Origin: Pirellulales bacterium
GTDB taxonomy: Bacteria > Planctomycetota > Planctomycetia > Pirellulales > Thermoguttaceae
Direction: 5' to 3'
Assembly (NCBI GenBank): GCA_016929515.1
Contig: JAFGIR010000016.1
Location: 26,390 to 90,389 of the forward strand
DNA: 64,000 bases
In this document: positions 1,567 to 61,477 of the stretch, in pieces
How the letters are laid out: every line of letters starts with the position of its first letter
Numbering within the stretch: the stretch's first letter is position 1
Program-made: the position numbers and the translations under genes
Notes under the pieces: generated by a model
The model's database searches: none
What the model saw: the letters and a program-made list of their open reading frames with translations, nothing else
What the model was told of the DNA's origin: nothing

Positions 1567-2919
1567 CTATTCGGTTTCTTGGTCTTGCGGTTGTTCGGCC
1601 CGTGCCCGCAGCGCGAGCAGCTTGTCGCGAGCTTCATTCGGTTCGGACGGTTTGTCAGCGGTTTGGGTCAAGTAATCGTGAATGGCTTCTTGCATCTGTA
1701 CGGCCCGATCGACGGTCAGATTGGTGCCGGGCTGATAGGCGCCGACGGAAATCATGTCTTCGTGATCGCGTTGGGTGGCCAGCAGTTCTCGCACCATTGC
1801 AGCAGCTTGGCGATGCTCTTCATTGGTCACTGTCGGCATGACGCGGCTGAGACTTTCGAGCACGTCGATGGCTGGATAATGTCCCCGCGAGGCTAGTGTT
1901 CGTGAGAGCCACACATGGCCGTCGAGCAATCCACGGACTGCGTCGCTGATAGGTTCATTCGGGTCGTCCGCTTCGACCAACACGTTGTAGAAGGCGGTGA
2001 TGCTACCCAATTCGGCCTGTCCAGCTCGTTCGACCAGCTTGGGCAATGCGGCGAAGACCGACGGTGGATAGCCGCGCGTCGTGGGCGGCTCGCCAGCGGC
2101 CAGGCCAATTTCGCGTTGGGCTAAAGCGACCCGTGTGAGCGAGTCCACCAGCAAGAGGACATCCTTTCCCTGGTCGCGAAAATATTCAGCGATGGCTGTG
2201 GCGGTAGCTGCCGCATTGACACGGAGCATGGCCGGCTCGTCGCTGGTGGCGACGACGACCACGCTTCGGGTGAGTCCTTCGGGGCCGAGGTCGCGCCGGA
2301 GAAATTCACCCACCTCGCGTCCTCGCTCACCGATCAATCCAATGACGATGACCTCGGCCGAGCTGAAGCGAGCCATCATACCCAAGAGCACGCTCTTTCC
2401 GACGCCTGAGGCGGCGAAGATCCCCATGCGCTGTCCACGGCCACAAGTCAGCAGTCCGTCGATGGCCCGAATGCCCGTCGCCAACGGCGCGTCGATCGGA
2501 GGTCGACGGCACGGATGGGGAGGGCGACGGTCGAATGGTGCGCGGTTGCGGAGTGCCGGTGCGGGTGTGCCGTCGACGGCGTTGCCTTCGGCGTCGAGCA
2601 CGCGGCCAAGCAGTTCGTTGCCCACACGCAACCATCGCGACGTGCGGGCGAGTCGCACACGATTTCCGCGACGCACACCGCTGGAGTTGCCGAGCGGATA
2701 AAGGATAGTAGAGCTGTCACGAAATCCAATTACCTGAGCTCGAAGCAATTGTCCTCGGTCACGCTTGATCTCGGCGATTGCACCGACCGGCGCTGGAAAG
2801 CCGACAGCCGACACGGTTGTACCGACGGTTTGAGTCACGCGACCTGATAGGGCAGTCGGCAGAATCGCGTCGAGTTGTTCGGCAATGTTCAACATGGTTT
2901 CGCGCAGTGATTTTTTCAC
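1567..2919 (-). CDS. fliI: flagellum-specific ATP synthase FliI
   Basis: Walker A is AASGVGKSVLLGMM and Walker B is DVLLLVDSLTR. The F1/T3SS-ATPase layout is present, including YPPSVFAALPKLVERAG. The start is GTG at 2919; ATG at 2895 is an alternative. Confidence 0.95.
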   Translation of the reverse strand: MKKSLRETMLNIAEQLDAILPTALSGRVTQTVGTTVSAVGFPAPVGAIAEIKRDRGQLLRAQVIGFRDSSTILYPLGNSSGVRRGNRVRLARTSRWLRVGNELLGRVLDAEGNAVDGTPAPALRNRAPFDRRPPHPCRRPPIDAPLATGIRAIDGLLTCGRGQRMGIFAASGVGKSVLLGMMARFSSAEVIVIGLIGERGREVGEFLRRDLGPEGLTRSVVVVATSDEPAMLRVNAAATATAIAEYFRDQGKDVLLLVDSLTRVALAQREIGLAAGEPPTTRGYPPSVFAALPKLVERAGQAELGSITAFYNVLVEADDPNEPISDAVRGLLDGHVWLSRTLASRGHYPAIDVLESLSRVMPTVTNEEHRQAAAMVRELLATQRDHEDMISVGAYQPGTNLTVDRAVQMQEAIHDYLTQTADKPSEPNEARDKLLALRARAEQPQDQETE

Positions 2920-3021
2920 TTGTTGATAGCTGCGTTTATGACGTTCAGGTCGTTACAGGTGAGAACCATCAATAAGCCGGGCTTCCGTCAGGCGTCCTGC
3001 CTTCATTTAGCTATGCAGGTC
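2916..3021 (-). repeat. intercistronic conserved element, copy A (fills the whole fliH stop - fliI start gap)
   Basis: About 75% identical by eye over ~106 nt to 11965-12071. Shared blocks (minus strand) are CTGCATAGCTAA(A)TGAA, ACGGAA, CCTG(T/A)AACGACCTGAACGTC and GCAG(C/T)TATCAA(C/T)AAGTGA. Confidence 0.6.
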
Positions 3022-3687
3022 TTAATAGACGAGCTCTTCTTCGATCCGTGCCAGTTGGGTTTCAAACTGCTGGTCGATTACGCCGAAACAAGTATTGACG
3101 CGGCATCCGCCTGGACTAACCCCTTCGTCGGCTACCACCTCGACCGATCCGAGTCCGACAAGTTCCTTGGCAATTTCGTCGACCCGTACACCAAGGGTCT
3201 GAAGGTCGGTTGGGTTCAGATAAACGCGGATCTCGTCGTTGCCGACGGCCAACTCGAGCGCCTCGCGTACCAACGTTAGCGGAACATCGGGATGTGTGTC
3301 GAGTGAGCGGCGGATCAGCCGTTCGGCGATGGATATGGCCACATGGACCGCGTTCTTTTCCCAGTGGTTCAGCCAGGCTTGCTTGGCGTCTTGTATTTCT
3401 TGGACGACTGCTTCGATCGCCGATGTCAAGGTGCCCCATTGTTCGTTATTGTGTTGCGTGAGCATTTCGTACGCGGTGCGGCGTCCTTGAGTGGCTGCAT
3501 CGAGGCGAATATGTTCGGCCTGTTGTTTGGCCGTAGCGATGAGTCGGGCCGCCTCGTTGGAAAACGAGGTTCGATCAGGATCGGCGCGTTGGGTCAAGTC
3601 CACTAGATCAACCGTCCAGGGGCGAACGCTTGCGCAAGAGTTGCTCGCTTTGATGATTGTCGGCATGCGTGTCTTTTCGGACCTCAT
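3022..3687 (-). CDS. fliH: flagellar assembly protein FliH
   Basis: The C-terminal segment VVADEGVSPGGCRVNTCFGVIDQQFETQLARIEEEL is the FliH/T3SS stator signature. It lies between fliF-G and fliI. Confidence 0.75.
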   Translation of the reverse strand: MRSEKTRMPTIIKASNSCASVRPWTVDLVDLTQRADPDRTSFSNEAARLIATAKQQAEHIRLDAATQGRRTAYEMLTQHNNEQWGTLTSAIEAVVQEIQDAKQAWLNHWEKNAVHVAISIAERLIRRSLDTHPDVPLTLVREALELAVGNDEIRVYLNPTDLQTLGVRVDEIAKELVGLGSVEVVADEGVSPGGCRVNTCFGVIDQQFETQLARIEEELVY

Positions 3688-3720: not shown

Positions 3721-6045
3721 TTATGGCGTCACGGAAAAAGCCATTTGTCCCACGTCCTCAGGCAATGACAATGTGCCGACGCCGGCAAGTGATTGGGCCA
3801 ACTCGATCAACCGTGATCGCGCGGCGTCGACATCACTCAGCCGCGTCAGCTTCAGGTGATCAAGCGATCGGCGAATTGTCTTGGCTTGCTCACGCGACCG
3901 CGAACTGAGCATCCGGTCTACAACGTCCTCGGTGGCACCAATCAGAGCCAGCGTCAGGACTTCGTCGCCAGCCGCCTCACAGAGTCGGGCTAGCGATCGG
4001 TTATCCCATTGGGTGAAGTCCTCGAAGTCAAAGGAATACGTGCTCTGATAGGCAGAGGACTCGAATTGAGCAGCCAATCGGCCGTCGCGCGCGACTAGGT
4101 TGTTCAGCAACTGCCGGCGGACCGGTTGTGGCGAAGCGTCGAGAATTGCGCTGATTGCGCTCAGGCCAGCCACGCGCCGCTCACGCATCGGAACTTGCTT
4201 GGCCAGCCGGGTATTCAGGCTCTGGTCGATCTCGTGAAGGACCTCCGGATCGGCCTGTTCGAGGTCGATCCATCGATGGATCACGTCGATCTGCACCTCG
4301 GGCGCGAAGCACACGAGCACCTGGCCTGCCCGATCCGGCTCAAGATGCGAAAGCACTAGGGCAATCGTCTGAGGCAATTCGCCAGTCAGAATTTGCGCGA
4401 TCCGTGGACAATTGGTTTGGCTTAGCAGTCCGAACGGCGCCGGTGTGACATCGTCGGTCGTCAGGGCCCGGTGTTCGATTAGCTGACGGGCCAGTTGGCT
4501 GTCCAACTCGATTCCGGAAAGATCCTCGTGAGCATCAGTCGTCGTGGCCAGGTGTCGCGGCTTGACCTTGCCGAGTTGATCTGCGCGACAGCTTCGTGTC
4601 TTTTGTAAGACGCGTTTTGCGATAGGCCGCGATGCAATAAAACCAGCGGCGGCCAGCACAATGACGCCCAGCGTGCTTCCGTACTCGGCCAATCTGGCAC
4701 GCAGAGATGTGTCCGCTACTTGTTCGGAGGTCATCGCCACTGGCGAATCGCGAAAGGGTACGACCGCAACCCACTCGGTCAAATCATTCATGCCTTCAAC
4801 GGTTGGCAATGCGGAAGCCACCAGCCGCTTGATTTCGCCGATTTCTCGCATCTGGACGGTTCGGAATGTGGCCTTTTTCGATTGTCGAGTCGGCACGCCC
4901 GCGGTCGAGGCATTTTGGTCTTGATCTCGCCAAATCTTCTCGAAGTAGCTGATGGGCACGCGAATGGACACACGAAAGGGCGGCACGACAACCGTTGCCG
5001 AAACCCTCTCGCCAGTGCTGGCGACCTCTTCATTGGTTGCCATCCTGCTTCGATTAACGATGGTCTCACCACTCCTGGTCCTCGGCAGCTCCCTTGCACG
5101 ATTGGAAACTGTGGCTGACCGTTCGTCGACGCTATCGCTCTCAACGGCGTGGTTGCGATTCGGTTCGGCCTGTTGTTCCAACGAGCTTGGCTCGGGCGAG
5201 GCCGCACTCGTGTGTTTCATGCGCGGCTGTGGCCGGTCCTCTACGGCCGTGGCGACGACGCTCACCCCGGGGATGAAATGCAGCAACCGCAGAATTCGGT
5301 CCTCGCAGTCTTGCTCCGCGGCTCGTTGGTCTTGGAGGTGGCTCCTGTCTTTCGCACCGACGTCGCCGTTAGCGAAATCAGGATAGCGGATGTGGTTGAT
5401 CTTGTCGAAGACGCGAATATCCTCGGGTCTCATGCCGGCCCAACTATAGGCAACTCGGTCACAGATCATGGCGCCCAGTTTTGGGTCGAGTTTTTTGCCG
5501 TGTTTCATGGTCAGATCAACCAAAGCGGTTCGAAGTGTCCGTTTGTTCAATCCGTGTCCCTCTTCTCGACTGTCGAGCGTGACGGTCGCCTTGGCGATTT
5601 CGGGGAATTCAGAGATTCCCGTTTCGAGTTTCTTCTCCTTGGCGCGGATGCAAAGTGCCTTCCTTTGGTCAAGGGGCATCCAGATTGAGCCGGCGTCAAT
5701 TGCGTCGTCCATGGGATCGTTCGACTTGGACGGCAAGGCGCCCACCCGGTCTAACGCGGCCAGGTACGGGGACCGCTCGCCTTGTGGAATGAAAAGTTGC
5801 GAGTTGCGGATGTCGAAGCGTAAGTGTGCCTCAGCCAAGGCAACTCGAATCGTGTTGAGCTGATCCTGGGAAAGCACTTGCTCGCCGAAGAGTGATTCTT
5901 GGGAATCGCCCCACAACGAGATGCCCAGGTAGGCTAGGCCGATCGCAGCAACCAATAACAACCCTCCGGCGACGATCCGTGAGTTGGGGGTCATCGAACG
6001 AACGTGGTTGAGAATCTGAGTGGGGAGTTGGTTGAGAAAGTCCAT
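3721..6045 (-). CDS. fliF: FliF (MS-ring) fused in one ORF to FliG middle and C-terminal domains
   Basis: aa 1-473 carry a TM at aa 24-44, a FliF/YscJ-type periplasmic region (QDQLNTIRVALAEAHLRF, KATVTLDSRE, RTALVDLTM) and a second TM at aa 456-473. aa ~536-774 carry FliG_M (ELPQTIALVLSHLEPDRAGQVL) and FliG_C (FDFEDFTQWDNRSL...LTLALIGATEDVVDRMLSSRSREQAKTIRRSL...LSDVDAARSRLIELA). There is no stop codon between the two halves. Confidence 0.9.
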   Translation of the reverse strand: MDFLNQLPTQILNHVRSMTPNSRIVAGGLLLVAAIGLAYLGISLWGDSQESLFGEQVLSQDQLNTIRVALAEAHLRFDIRNSQLFIPQGERSPYLAALDRVGALPSKSNDPMDDAIDAGSIWMPLDQRKALCIRAKEKKLETGISEFPEIAKATVTLDSREEGHGLNKRTLRTALVDLTMKHGKKLDPKLGAMICDRVAYSWAGMRPEDIRVFDKINHIRYPDFANGDVGAKDRSHLQDQRAAEQDCEDRILRLLHFIPGVSVVATAVEDRPQPRMKHTSAASPEPSSLEQQAEPNRNHAVESDSVDERSATVSNRARELPRTRSGETIVNRSRMATNEEVASTGERVSATVVVPPFRVSIRVPISYFEKIWRDQDQNASTAGVPTRQSKKATFRTVQMREIGEIKRLVASALPTVEGMNDLTEWVAVVPFRDSPVAMTSEQVADTSLRARLAEYGSTLGVIVLAAAGFIASRPIAKRVLQKTRSCRADQLGKVKPRHLATTTDAHEDLSGIELDSQLARQLIEHRALTTDDVTPAPFGLLSQTNCPRIAQILTGELPQTIALVLSHLEPDRAGQVLVCFAPEVQIDVIHRWIDLEQADPEVLHEIDQSLNTRLAKQVPMRERRVAGLSAISAILDASPQPVRRQLLNNLVARDGRLAAQFESSAYQSTYSFDFEDFTQWDNRSLARLCEAAGDEVLTLALIGATEDVVDRMLSSRSREQAKTIRRSLDHLKLTRLSDVDAARSRLIELAQSLAGVGTLSLPEDVGQMAFSVTP

Positions 6046-8640: not shown

Positions 8641-9167
8641 ATACGTGCCAGAAGGGCAACACGACGAGCTTTCCAGGAACGATCACCCAACCAAAGGGTG
8701 ACTTTTTCCCAACAAAGAGAGCGACCGGCAATGATTGTTCGTCGAACCACCGGTTAAACCCTCACGATCTTGACCGCAAACGTAAATGCCTGCGGATTTT
8801 CCAAGGCCAGACTCTAACGCATTGCCCGCTCCTCTGTCAAGCTCGGTCGGTTGGGTGGTGTGGAAGAGCGGAAAAAGGGAGCTTATTGAGATTCGCATTA
8901 GTAGTGGACTCAATGCGACCAACGGGAGCCCGATTTTCGGGACCATTCGGTGAAGCACCAGCCTCACTACTCTTGCGAAGATCAACGACACTTTTCGGCG
9001 GGGCTTCAAGATCAGAGCGATGTGAAAAGGCGTCTTGTCGAAACAGTACAGCGATGCAATGCTAGCACGTTTCAGCCTTGCCTTGAGCGAGACACACGTT
9101 CCACGATGTCGAGTTTTTAGACACCGCGTGTGGAAGGATACCTGTGCGAATGTCCATCGGCGAACGG

Positions 9168-10118
9168 TCAGCACGAGCATAGGTCGAGTTGCGTCATCTT
9201 TTCGACTAGTCGTTTCGTGGCGGCCACGCTCTTCTGAAACTGGGCGCGTTCCTCGTCGGTCATGTCAAATTCGACAATTCGTTCGACGCCTTGGGCTCCG
9301 AGTATAACAGGTACACCTACGCAGTAGCCGCCCACGCCGTATTCCTTGTCACAATAGGTGGAGCATGGAATTAGACGTTTCTCGTCGCGGATCACTGCCT
9401 CAATCATTCGCATCGTGGCCGCTCCCGCCGCGCAGGACGCACCGGTCTTCATCAAGCTGACAAGCTCTGCGCCGCTGTCGCGTGTGCGTTGGACCACTTG
9501 CTTCAGGCGGTTAGGCTTGATCAGTTGATCGACGGGAATACCGCCGACCGACGAACAACGAGTCAGTGGTACCATCGTGTCGCCATGACCGCCGATCAAC
9601 ATGGCATTGATGTCTTCAACGCGGACGCCCAATTCCATGGCTAGATAGGTGCGGAGCCGGGCCGTGTCAAGCAAGCCTGCCTGACCAATGACACGGTGAG
9701 GCGGAAAGCCGGTGGTCTGCAGTGCCTGCTGTGTCATGGTGTCGAGCGGATTGGTCACGACGATGACAATGGCCTCGGGGCTGGTGTCGCGCACTTGCCG
9801 GGATGCGAACGCGACGATCTTCGCGTTTACTTCGAGAAGCTCATCGCGGCTCATGCCCGGTGTCCGTGGTTTGCCGGCGGTGATGACGACTACGTCGCTA
9901 TCGACGGTATGCTCGTAACTGCCGGAGCCGATGATCGAGAGGTCGAATCGCATGATCGGGGCAGCATGGATCAAGTCAAGCGCTTTGCCTCGGGCGATGT
10001 CGCCTCCGTTGCGAGTGTCAACGAGAACCAGGTCGCCCAACTCGGCCGCCGCACACCAATGCGCCGTCGTGGTCCCGACGTGCCCGGCTCCGACGATCGT
10101 GATCTTCGGTCGCTTCAT
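9168..10118 (-). CDS. mdh: malate dehydrogenase (LDH-like type)
   Basis: Motifs KITIVGAGHVGTTTA, VVITAGKPRTPGMSRDEL, VVTNPLD and IGGHGDTMVP are near-canonical for LDH-like Mdh. Confidence 0.95.
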   Translation of the reverse strand: MKRPKITIVGAGHVGTTTAHWCAAAELGDLVLVDTRNGGDIARGKALDLIHAAPIMRFDLSIIGSGSYEHTVDSDVVVITAGKPRTPGMSRDELLEVNAKIVAFASRQVRDTSPEAIVIVVTNPLDTMTQQALQTTGFPPHRVIGQAGLLDTARLRTYLAMELGVRVEDINAMLIGGHGDTMVPLTRCSSVGGIPVDQLIKPNRLKQVVQRTRDSGAELVSLMKTGASCAAGAATMRMIEAVIRDEKRLIPCSTYCDKEYGVGGYCVGVPVILGAQGVERIVEFDMTDEERAQFQKSVAATKRLVEKMTQLDLCSC

Positions 10119-11795: not shown

Positions 11796-11984
11796 TTACT
11801 CGGCACTTTGCTCGACCGTCGGTGCCGGGACGGGGAACACCTCGTCATCGCTAGCCACGTAGGCGAACATGGCCAACAGCATCATGGCAACAACTATGAT
11901 AGCCACCCACTTAGTGTTTCGTATCATTGTTTTCGTCTCGTTTTCAGGACCGGTGATCGTGGGGTCACTTATTGATAACTGCAT
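11796..11984 (-). CDS. possible small single-TM protein (43-62 aa)
   Basis: It has a hydrophobic core, WVAIIVVAMMLLAMFAYV. However, its first ~20 nt belong to repeat copy B, so the true start may be the internal ATG (MIRNTKW...). Confidence 0.35.
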   Translation of the reverse strand: MQLSISDPTITGPENETKTMIRNTKWVAIIVVAMMLLAMFAYVASDDEVFPVPAPTVEQSAE

Positions 11985-12071
11985 TTCAGACGTTCAGGTC
12001 GTTTCAGGCAAGAAACCTCAAAGAGAATTGGGATTCCGTTGGGCGCACTGCGTTCATTAGCTATGCAGTTT
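11965..12071 (-). repeat. intercistronic conserved element, copy B
   Basis: It begins right after the stop codon (12072-12074) of the upstream gene and runs into the first codons of the small ORF. It aligns with 2916-3021 (see copy A). Confidence 0.6.
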
Positions 12072-12992
12072 CTAATGGTCGACGCCAGGGTCTGATTGAC
12101 GTAGCGGCCGCGTCGTGCGACAGGTCCGTCTGAAAACATAGCTTGCGATGGCCGCCGCTATTAACGCTGCACTGCCGACGACAAGTATACCCCCCCAAAG
12201 GCCCAATGAGGGTTGGCTCAAAAACGACGATTCTGACGCTTGCTTCGTCCGGTCGCGCTCGACGGTCCGGGCAAGGACCACTGGGCATAGCTGGAGTCCC
12301 TCTTGCGTCTTCTTAAGCCACTGCTTGAAATAGAAGCCCGTGATGATTGCGGGCTCCGAAATATCCATGCCTTTCGGAAATCCGTCGGGCAGTTCGAGGC
12401 AGTAGACGACGATCGACCGGTCGGGGTCGTCATCAGGCTGCACCCACGTTTGATAGTAGCCGGTGATTCCGTAATCGTTCTTCGGTGCGTTGAGCCAGTG
12501 TGCTCGATGGATCGTACCGCGGATCGTCACCAACTCGCCGCGATAGGCCTTCGACTGCTCCGACAACTGGATGCGCGCGATCCGACCGATCGATGCGCGG
12601 CAAAGCTTCGCAGGATCGGCTGTCCGAAGAACGGCAAATAGATGGAACCAAGCGTCCTGTTCCTCGACGCGGAAGTGGGTCTTGTCGCGAATTGTCTCAA
12701 GAAACTCAGACTTGACACCGGGAAAATACTTGCCCGAGAATTCGTCGACATTTTCGTTTGGCTCGTTGTCTCGTTCGGCCCGTACTTCCGGGAAGAACAG
12801 TTCCCAGTTTTTCGGTTTGCGTGCCTCGTTCATTGCGATCAAGACGAGTCCCAGCGACATGACCAACAGCAACAAGCGCCCTTGTTCCCGCCGCCCAGAA
12901 TAATCGCGAGGTCTGCCGTTGCGCCGAGCGTTGACCATGGAAAGCATCCTCACAACACCAGGAACCATCGAGCGAGGTCCAGCGACCGGCAC
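12072..12992 (-). CDS. hypothetical membrane protein, paralog of the C-terminal module of 10121-11581
   Basis: It has an N-terminal TM (LLLLVMSLGLVLIAM) and a C-terminal TM (LWGGILVVGSAALIAAAIASYVF). RGELVTIRGTIHRA...IVVYCLELPDGFPKGMDISEPAIITGFYFK aligns with GKLVMFSGTVRRA...LVFCVLDVPKNMPLGDGPEYSEPVTVAGFFLK. Confidence 0.7.
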   Translation of the reverse strand: MPVAGPRSMVPGVVRMLSMVNARRNGRPRDYSGRREQGRLLLLVMSLGLVLIAMNEARKPKNWELFFPEVRAERDNEPNENVDEFSGKYFPGVKSEFLETIRDKTHFRVEEQDAWFHLFAVLRTADPAKLCRASIGRIARIQLSEQSKAYRGELVTIRGTIHRAHWLNAPKNDYGITGYYQTWVQPDDDPDRSIVVYCLELPDGFPKGMDISEPAIITGFYFKQWLKKTQEGLQLCPVVLARTVERDRTKQASESSFLSQPSLGLWGGILVVGSAALIAAAIASYVFRRTCRTTRPLRQSDPGVDH

Positions 12993-53327: not shown

Positions 53328-53991
53328 AAGGCAGATTATGACCGGCCGCGAAGCGTGCGTCCAGCAGGCGGTTGATCCGACGAGAATGTCGGCCGGCCGT
53401 CGGCACGGACTTCGCCGGGACCAAAAAGATCGTGACTGCATGAGCGAATAGACAAACAAAGCAAGAGATGTGCGAATGAAAGCATGGGCAAGATGAGGCG
53501 TCTGGGGGTGCATGTTTGCGGTTTGTTTGCCGACCAACGACATGGCCAGGCTCGATACACCGATCGTTGGTGGTAGAGCCACGCCTCCGGCAGCGGTGTA
53601 GGCAGGCGTCGCGTGGGCCGTTTTGGCCCGAACGATCTGGTATCGATTCGCCACTCCGACTAAACTGCGTTAGCTGTTCTATTTTGAACAAGCCCCCAAC
53701 CGTCTTGCTGAGGTTTGCATGTTGGTCCGCAGTGGGCGGTTGCCGATTGCTCTGAAGTGGAGCTTCGGTCACTTGCCTTTCGATCGTACGAGATGCGAGG
53801 GGCGAAAGTACAATCACAACGACCCGAAAGTGGCGCGACGGCCAACGGATTGGCGAATCACCACCGTCGTCACCGACTAGCCATTTTCCCCTTGCGCGAG
53901 GTTTTCTTGCGTCTTTTGGCCGACCGGCTCTCTCGGCTCGGCCACGAGACGTGTATTCTCGAAGCCATACGGCATTCCCAGGAGATCTATT

Positions 53992-61155: not shown

Positions 61156-61477
61156 TCTTGCTGACCCCGCGATTGGAAGAAATCGCCAACACGGCCGAAA
61201 GTCCTTCGACGGTCATCCATTCTAATCGTGGCAGGCCATGACTGCAAGTTTCATTGATGATTGCATATTCACCGAACGGCCAGCCGCGGCCCAACTGCTT
61301 GAAACCGGGCTCCCGTTGGTCGCCCTCCGTTCATTCAATATGCAAGGGCCAATAAGTGTTACGACCAGTTGCTGCCGTCGCTCGCGCGGTTGCGCGAGTT
61401 CGGATACCGACGGCCTTACCACGGTCACGCGGCAGCCACACGACTTCGATCCAGGCGAGCCGAACGCCGGCCAATGA

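Follow-up and report, generated by a model that had tools for sequence, protein, structure and literature searches.

IS630-family transposases are DDE enzymes of the Tc1/mariner type which act by cut and paste at the dinucleotide TA. The elements collected under this family in ISfinder insert at TA, often within CTAG, and duplicate the TA. To our knowledge, no parent insertion sequence (IS) of the Correia elements has been described, and we know of no demonstrated transposase partner or target duplication for ERIC. Effects exerted through promoters, IHF sites and RNase III or RNase E have been documented for Correia/NEMIS and for ERIC (PMC10969869).

The repeat analysed here was noticed in a window of 64,000 nt (the whole stretch of DNA that was analysed), where copy A lies between the flagellar genes fliH and fliI and copy B follows a gene for a 306-aa membrane protein. 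On the sequence comparisons described below, we assign the repeat family to the IS630-type MITEs and take copies A and B to be its decayed copies, with a probability of about 0.87. A miniature insertion element was one of several options raised by a sequence-only reading of the window, and it is the one which the analysis supported.

Results

Two homologous stretches and their family

The stretches 2916-3021 and 11965-12071 of the window are homologous (78% identity over 103 nt, E=2.7e-16; BLAST), as the sequence-only reading had noted. The minus strand is the coding strand of the neighbouring genes for both of them, which was confirmed on the sequence, and the conserved blocks listed in that reading were found in both stretches. 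The repeat is not confined to these two copies as had been supposed. A starting profile built from copies A and B alone recovers about ten more copies in the same assembly (4.6 Mb, 503 contigs, 92% complete), and four nhmmer rounds (E<1e-3) gave 117 non-overlapping matches in this genome, 83 of them near full length. The features of the window which are referred to below are as follows.

1567..2895, minus strand: fliI from its probable true start, ATG 2895-2893 (Pfam ATP-synt_ab and T3SS_ATPase_C)
2921..3027, minus strand: copy A, putative MITE of 107 nt, type III (nhmmer E=7.7e-14 against the family profile, model positions 6-118); left terminus TATTAAG, holding the last fliH codon TAT (Tyr) and the stop TAA at 3024-3022; right terminus ATCAACA
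3022..3687, minus strand: fliH (Pfam FliH, 1.6e-20)
8884..8987, plus strand: further family copy, type I (nhmmer E=5.7e-18)
11970..12077, minus strand: copy B, putative MITE of 108 nt, type III (nhmmer E=3e-12; 78% identical to copy A); left terminus CATTAGA, in which the gene for the 306-aa membrane protein ends (last codon, then the stop TAG at 12074-12072); right terminus ATCAATA
53706..53807, minus strand: degenerate family copy (nhmmer E=1.9e-4, a weak match)
61252..61354, minus strand: further family copy, type II, near consensus, with the core GGCGACCAACGGGAGCC intact (nhmmer E=5.7e-25; exact core match)

Measured against the family consensus, the boundaries drawn before were about 6 nt off, and the copies span 2921-3027 and 11970-12077. 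The stretches had been thought to start just after the upstream stop codon, whereas the left terminus of the element contains that codon: the consensus reads TATTGAG there, copy A TATTAAG and copy B CATTAGA. The AAGTGA which the two loci had been reported to share is indeed present past the right ends of both copies, but it lies outside the family element. Its first base fits the purine seen family-wide after the terminus, AAG occurs at this place in two other members of the subfamily, and the remaining 3 nt are within chance. AAGTGA was rejected as a sign that A and B are a segmental copy of one another since it is within chance.

Anatomy of the repeat

The family consensus reads cTATTGAcgCTTGCATggccAATGAACgcAGGGCGACCAACGGGAGCCCGGtttc...ATGCAAacATCAATAg, and of 160 copies taken from several genomes, 121 measure 102-105 nt. 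No family-wide open reading frame was found in the repeat, which is thus both small and non-coding in the sense usual for MITEs (under ~300 bp). A few copies reach ~137 nt owing to a 33-nt hairpin, tcgtcctccgccatgggcttcggccgacggcgg, between GACCA and ACGGGA. In the genome studied, this UUCG-type hairpin occurs in the elements on contigs C59, C92, C293, C348 and C445, which belong to different subfamilies and carry it at an identical position within the core loop; it was never found outside the elements. Its occurrence fits either an ancestral long form or an exchange between copies.

The logo of 135 non-redundant copies gives the termini as Y|TATTG...CAATA|R, i.e. with TA at both element ends inside Y-TA...TA-R. 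No outer direct repeat is present beyond the termini in this logo and the flanks are random. From the Y-TA-TTG...CAA-TA-R pattern, together with what is known of the IS630 family, we infer a duplication of TA in a YTAR target.

The terminal inverted arms are ~27 nt long. RNAalifold gave no consensus for 62 copies of this genome, since MAFFT cannot align the arms across subfamilies; hence, the arms were compared by ungapped counting of mirror positions. Watson-Crick pairs occupy 62% of the cells at mirror positions 1-28. Mirror pairing at positions 7-28 reaches 56.6%, in comparison with 40.4±1.0% when each arm is set against the partner arm of a different copy and 19-26% when the register is shifted. 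Many arm positions display two or three Watson-Crick pair types (TA 53 and CG 48 at position 10; AT 40, GC 34 and CG 11 at position 24), which demonstrates that the arms covary between subfamilies. G.T mismatches (229) are not in excess over A.C mismatches (306), and the symmetry of the arms is thus one at the DNA level, with no strand singled out as it would be in a functional RNA.

The best-conserved block lies left of the centre and forms an asymmetric hairpin, GGGC-GACCAACGGGA-GCCC, with a 4-bp stem and an 11-nt loop. Compensatory variants of the stem, GGCC/GGCC and AGGC/GCCT, were found in five copies each. The core hairpin remains constant across subfamilies with different arms.

Relation to IS630-family insertion sequences

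Two long-read Thermoguttaceae MAGs proved to be rich in IS630-family insertion sequences. One of these, a 1,104-bp IS, is located at L164:957-2060, with copies also in L166 and L168, and the NCBIfam model NF033545 'IS630 family transposase' matches both halves of its transposase (1.6e-22 and 1.5e-31). Its ends are TATTGACGGTCGCAGAAGTAGTGAAC and TACTGAGTGTCGCAGAAGTAGTGAGTC. The arms of type-I repeats match these ends at 20-22 of 26 positions, both in the genome studied (C92, C31) and in the MAG which carries the IS (L064, L036, L086, L027), and it is this match to the TIRs of an IS630-family element which leads to the assignment of the whole family. A match of this kind is the standard signature of a MITE plus its autonomous relative. 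It was seen for type I and not for type III, the subfamily of copies A and B, the arms of which are degraded (ends TATTGAGGCCTGCATGGCTAAT) and agree with the 1,104-bp IS at only 10-11 of 30 positions.

Other candidate parents were rejected. A 1,166-bp IS630-family IS of the MAG CAXXFH01, flanked C-TA...TA-G in four of four copies, has different TIRs (ends C-TA-GTACG...). This IS is present in ~50 near-identical copies in its MAG (L163, L165, L167, L169). A lone DDE_3 remnant of 125 aa in the assembly studied (C244:1015-1326) is unrelated and has no matching ends. A tblastn search of this fragmented, 92%-complete assembly, in which absence is not proven by a missing hit, detected no homologue of the 1,104-bp IS transposase at E<0.01, and a loose regular-expression search of the same genome for pairs of termini with a spacing of 0.7-4 kb returned background only.

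The hairpin-like shape of the whole element might also suggest a palindromic element of the REP/BIME or IS200/IS605 type, moved by a Y1 enzyme (RAYT/TnpA) and not by a DDE transposase. TTGAT is the target of ISDra2, an IS200/IS605 element. The termini of the repeat do contain TTGA(T), and a slight orientation bias of the copies points the same way. Such elements would be expected to show subterminal hairpins and a one-sided target, but the repeat has symmetric inverted-repeat ends with TA on both sides, and its arms directly match the TIRs of an IS630-family IS. We give this explanation almost no credence.

The internal core hairpin is absent from the 1,104-bp IS. Plain MITEs do not usually have a conserved asymmetric core without a counterpart in the IS, and the MITE model does not account for it. 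The hairpin GGGC-GACCAACGGGA-GCCC could be a functional cargo spread on IS630 ends, such as a binding site for a host protein or sigma factor, or an RNA hairpin. Besides its absence from the IS, the core is the best-conserved part of the element, tolerates the 33-nt insert in its loop, shows compensatory stem changes and is retained both in subfamilies which differ in their arms and in at least two families of Planctomycetota. We consider a cargo function rather unlikely.

Distribution and age

The 20-nt core was found at more than 111 loci of a species-level genome collection, nearly all of them in Planctomycetota MAGs, which are labelled Thermoguttaceae, Pirellulales or Planctomycetaceae. 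Full elements of equal length are present in these MAGs; their right half is sometimes quite different, with termini and core kept. Among 400 genomes sampled evenly from the phylum, a multi-copy core occurred only in the genome studied and in members of one other family. The distribution of the family is patchy. In two genomes of this sample (G205 and G443), core matches are often paired ~90-120 nt apart, mostly on opposite strands, which suggests adjacent or head-to-head pairs of elements.

In the genome studied, the median identity of a copy to its nearest neighbour is 73%, and no two copies reach 95% or more. In the alignment of the subfamily to which copies A and B belong, the ten members are 47-73% alike, and A and B are mutually closest. 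These copies look old and fossil-like. Two other MAGs, from a sample picked by the intact core, contain copies at different loci which are identical or at least 95% identical (CAZWWC01 is a MAG with identical copies), and to judge from these copies, mobility is recent there.

The fliH-fliI junction

The element had been described as filling the fliH-fliI gap exactly, up to a GTG start codon of fliI. The longest fliI frame (1567-2919) does open at GTG 2919-2917, but this codon is not conserved as a start. The tblastn alignments of FliI in 20 relatives mostly begin at query residue 8-10, the corresponding junctions mostly read ATGCTC or ATGTT, and FliI of the relatives begins with ML... The true start of fliI is probably ATG 2895-2893, from which the proteins of the relatives align, and a 25-nt spacer is thus left between the element and the conserved ATG.

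The distance from the fliH stop to the fliI ATG is 3-10 nt, with no element, in the same-genus genomes G003 and G001. Five further relatives have a fliH-fliI gap of a few nucleotides, or the two genes overlap. The spacer in the genome studied is 126 nt long. The presence or absence of the element at this junction among relatives (it is empty in G001 and G003) and the dispersal of the copies are as known for MITEs. The nearest relatives are 73-78% identical in FliI, which is too distant for an empty site to be compared at the nucleotide level.

The end of fliH itself carries a further trace. FliH ends ...IEEELVY* in this genome and ...IEEEIS*, ...IEEELS* or ...IEEELT* in the same-genus relatives, the former being one residue longer. 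The first six positions of the element, TAT TGA in the family consensus, supply the extra codon TAT (3027-3025) and the stop TAA (3024-3022). Such an ending is what would result if the element had inserted at the TA of an earlier stop codon. Copy B stands in the same frame, with CAT TAG at 12077-12072. At least two other copies of this genome terminate a called gene in this manner, and three terminate one with their mirror end. Open frames ending in the terminus number 60, compared with 45-46 in the other frames, a difference which is weakly informative at 60% G+C.

The fliH-fliI junction seems, from its sequence in this group, to be a recurrent landing site. The fliH-fliI spacers of several other relatives (L145 of G011, L156 of G002, and L139, L141, L143 and L146) hold different palindromic inserts of 90-230 nt; the insert in L145 also has TATTG...CAATAG termini. 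Upstream of fliH, a single 774-aa open reading frame (window 3721-6045, minus strand) with a YscJ_FliF domain and the middle and C-terminal domains of FliG represents a FliF-FliG fusion.

The 306-aa gene and open reading frames overlapping copies

The 306-aa membrane protein gene which precedes copy B has no annotation and lies near tatC and mdh. No family match was found beside its orthologues in G002, G003 and G004. A small membrane open reading frame of 43 aa (MIRNTKWVAIIVVAMMLLAMFAYVAS...) runs from ATG 11927 on the minus strand (window 11796-11927), and its counterpart in the same-genus genome G004 likewise lies downstream of the 306-aa gene (L172: MMRYTKWIAVAAVVLMLLSMVAYVV). Since G004 conserves the frame from ATG 11927, the 62-codon open reading frame which starts inside copy B is probably an over-extended artefact.

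The type-I copy at 8884-8987 is located between mdh and the next gene and is oriented opposite to both. It is spanned by a 165-aa open reading frame on the minus strand (window 8683-9180), for which Pfam gave no match and which is unlikely to be a gene.

Placement in the genome

Ninety-five copies lie in spacers, 51 of them tandem, 6 convergent and 38 divergent. When spacers are weighted by base pairs, the copies are enriched in divergent (38/95) and depleted in convergent spacers (6/95; p=0.004). The density of YTAR sites per kb is, however, 5.2 in divergent, 3.9 in tandem and 2.7 in convergent spacers and 1.1 in coding sequence. The expectation based on these sites (51.8 tandem, 9.9 convergent, 33.3 divergent) agrees with the observed 51/6/38 (p=0.33). 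The density of YTAR target sites explains the placement of the copies, and no regulatory explanation is needed for it. Intercistronic gaps are not targeted as such, contrary to what had been suggested, for the copies are distributed like YTAR tetranucleotides; the stop codons TAA and TAG are YTAR sites when they follow a pyrimidine, which brings copies to stop codons without any targeting of gaps. In tandem spacers, the orientation leans to the gene strand (33:18, p=0.049), a weak effect which lies outside the MITE account.

This lean, which becomes 20:7 at scores of at least 40, is mild and would fit a selected cis-acting RNA (a leader, a processing site, a translation-control hairpin or a small RNA) regulating fliI and the other downstream gene. 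Copies A and B both lie on the coding strand within operons, the core hairpin is conserved with its two compensatory variants, and MITEs of similar size in Neisseria and Yersinia are substrates of RNase III or RNase E (PMC10969869). However, the orthologous junctions of same-genus relatives lack the element, its mRNA-sense strand folds no better than shuffled sequences (z=0.0 for copy A and -0.57 for copy B), G.U pairs do not exceed A.C in the arms, and target-site density accounts for the placement. Copies A and B are also among the most decayed, and the core hairpin of copy B is broken. Rfam gave no match in the window at the gathering score and none at E<=1 for copy A and three loci whose copies resemble the consensus. 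A somewhat better fold was obtained for the antisense strand of copy A (z=-1.86 against shuffles). The option of a regulatory RNA is very unlikely on this evidence.

A promoter carried by the repeat, either internal or facing outwards and of sigma-28, sigma-70 or ECF type, is less probable still. Correia and other MITEs do carry promoters (PMC10969869), and, as judged by reading the alignment, a GAAC motif stands ahead of the core in most subfamilies. By base pairs, the copies are enriched in divergent spacers, which might also be taken for promoter evidence; this was rejected, because the enrichment vanishes with YTAR density as the expectation. A scan of window positions 2700-3200, which does not cover planctomycete promoter types, found neither a sigma-70-like promoter nor an intrinsic terminator. 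The resemblance to a sigma-28 site which had been pointed out gives no support either. The presumed -10 element, ACGGAA, is the family core ACGG(G/A)A (ACGGGA in the consensus) and recurs in more than 100 copies at loci unrelated to flagellar genes, unlike a flagellar-specific FliA site of the TAAA-N15-GCCGATAA kind.

Discussion

According to the MITE reading, copies A and B would be decayed copies of a non-autonomous transposable element of 102-105 nt with IS630-type TIRs of ~27 nt, which would insert into YTAR sites as its Y-TA-TTG...CAA-TA-R termini indicate. Such sites are rare within the genes of a genome with 60% G+C and concentrated in promoter regions and at TAA and TAG stop codons. 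An element inserted at the TA of a stop codon would convert ...TA(A/G) into ...TAT TGA, with one tyrosine added and a new stop codon supplied by the element. The ends of fliH (now TAT TAA) and of the 306-aa gene (now CAT TAG) appear to have been rewritten in this manner. At fliH-fliI, the insertion would have separated two genes which in close relatives meet at a compact, probably translationally coupled junction, and the resulting 126-nt spacer would be co-transcribed with the operon. The mobilising transposase of the type III subfamily and an effect on fliH/fliI expression belong to what we infer.

For annotation, the repeat is a recurrent source of false open reading frames and wrong starts in these genomes, such as the GTG of fliI, the 62-codon frame after copy B and the 165-aa frame across 8884-8987. 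It also illustrates how the end of a gene can be altered by an element that targets TA: the protein gains one residue, and its stop codon is now provided by the element. The family profile can be useful for masking repeats in MAGs of the Pirellulales/Thermoguttaceae type, in which such repeats break assemblies. The fliH and fliI genes, adjacent or overlapping in the relatives and 126 nt apart here, provide a natural experiment. The finding of a MITE leaves current concepts unchanged. The kind of mobile DNA is ordinary, and the family is apparently not yet described in Planctomycetota: we found no published description of such a MITE family in this phylum in a literature coverage which is incomplete and leaves novelty unproven.

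The repeat resembles the MITEs derived from IS630/Tc1-mariner elements in being small, non-coding and dispersed, in its TIRs matching an IS630-family IS, in its TA ends within YTAR and in its presence or absence among relatives. It differs from them in the conserved asymmetric hairpin, which has no counterpart in the IS, and, as concerns the known IS630-derived MITEs, in its host phylum, the Planctomycetota.

Similarly to Correia/NEMIS of Neisseria, which are ~105-155 bp long, occur in more than 100 copies per genome next to or between genes, are co-transcribed with them and have termini starting TATAG or TATTG with a TA duplication (PMC10969869 and general knowledge), the repeat is short, numerous and intergenic, its own TA duplication being the one deduced from the logo. 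There is no sequence relation between the two, and in contrast to Correia/NEMIS a matching IS630-family IS exists for the repeat. The promoter, IHF-site and RNase III functions are ones shown for Correia. The sequences of the ERIC/IRU elements of enterobacteria (~127 bp) are likewise unrelated to it. In their architecture, however, these elements are analogous, since they too are imperfect palindromes with a conserved central core in transcribed intergenic regions, and their internal-insertion variants are comparable to the 33-nt insertion variant of the repeat.
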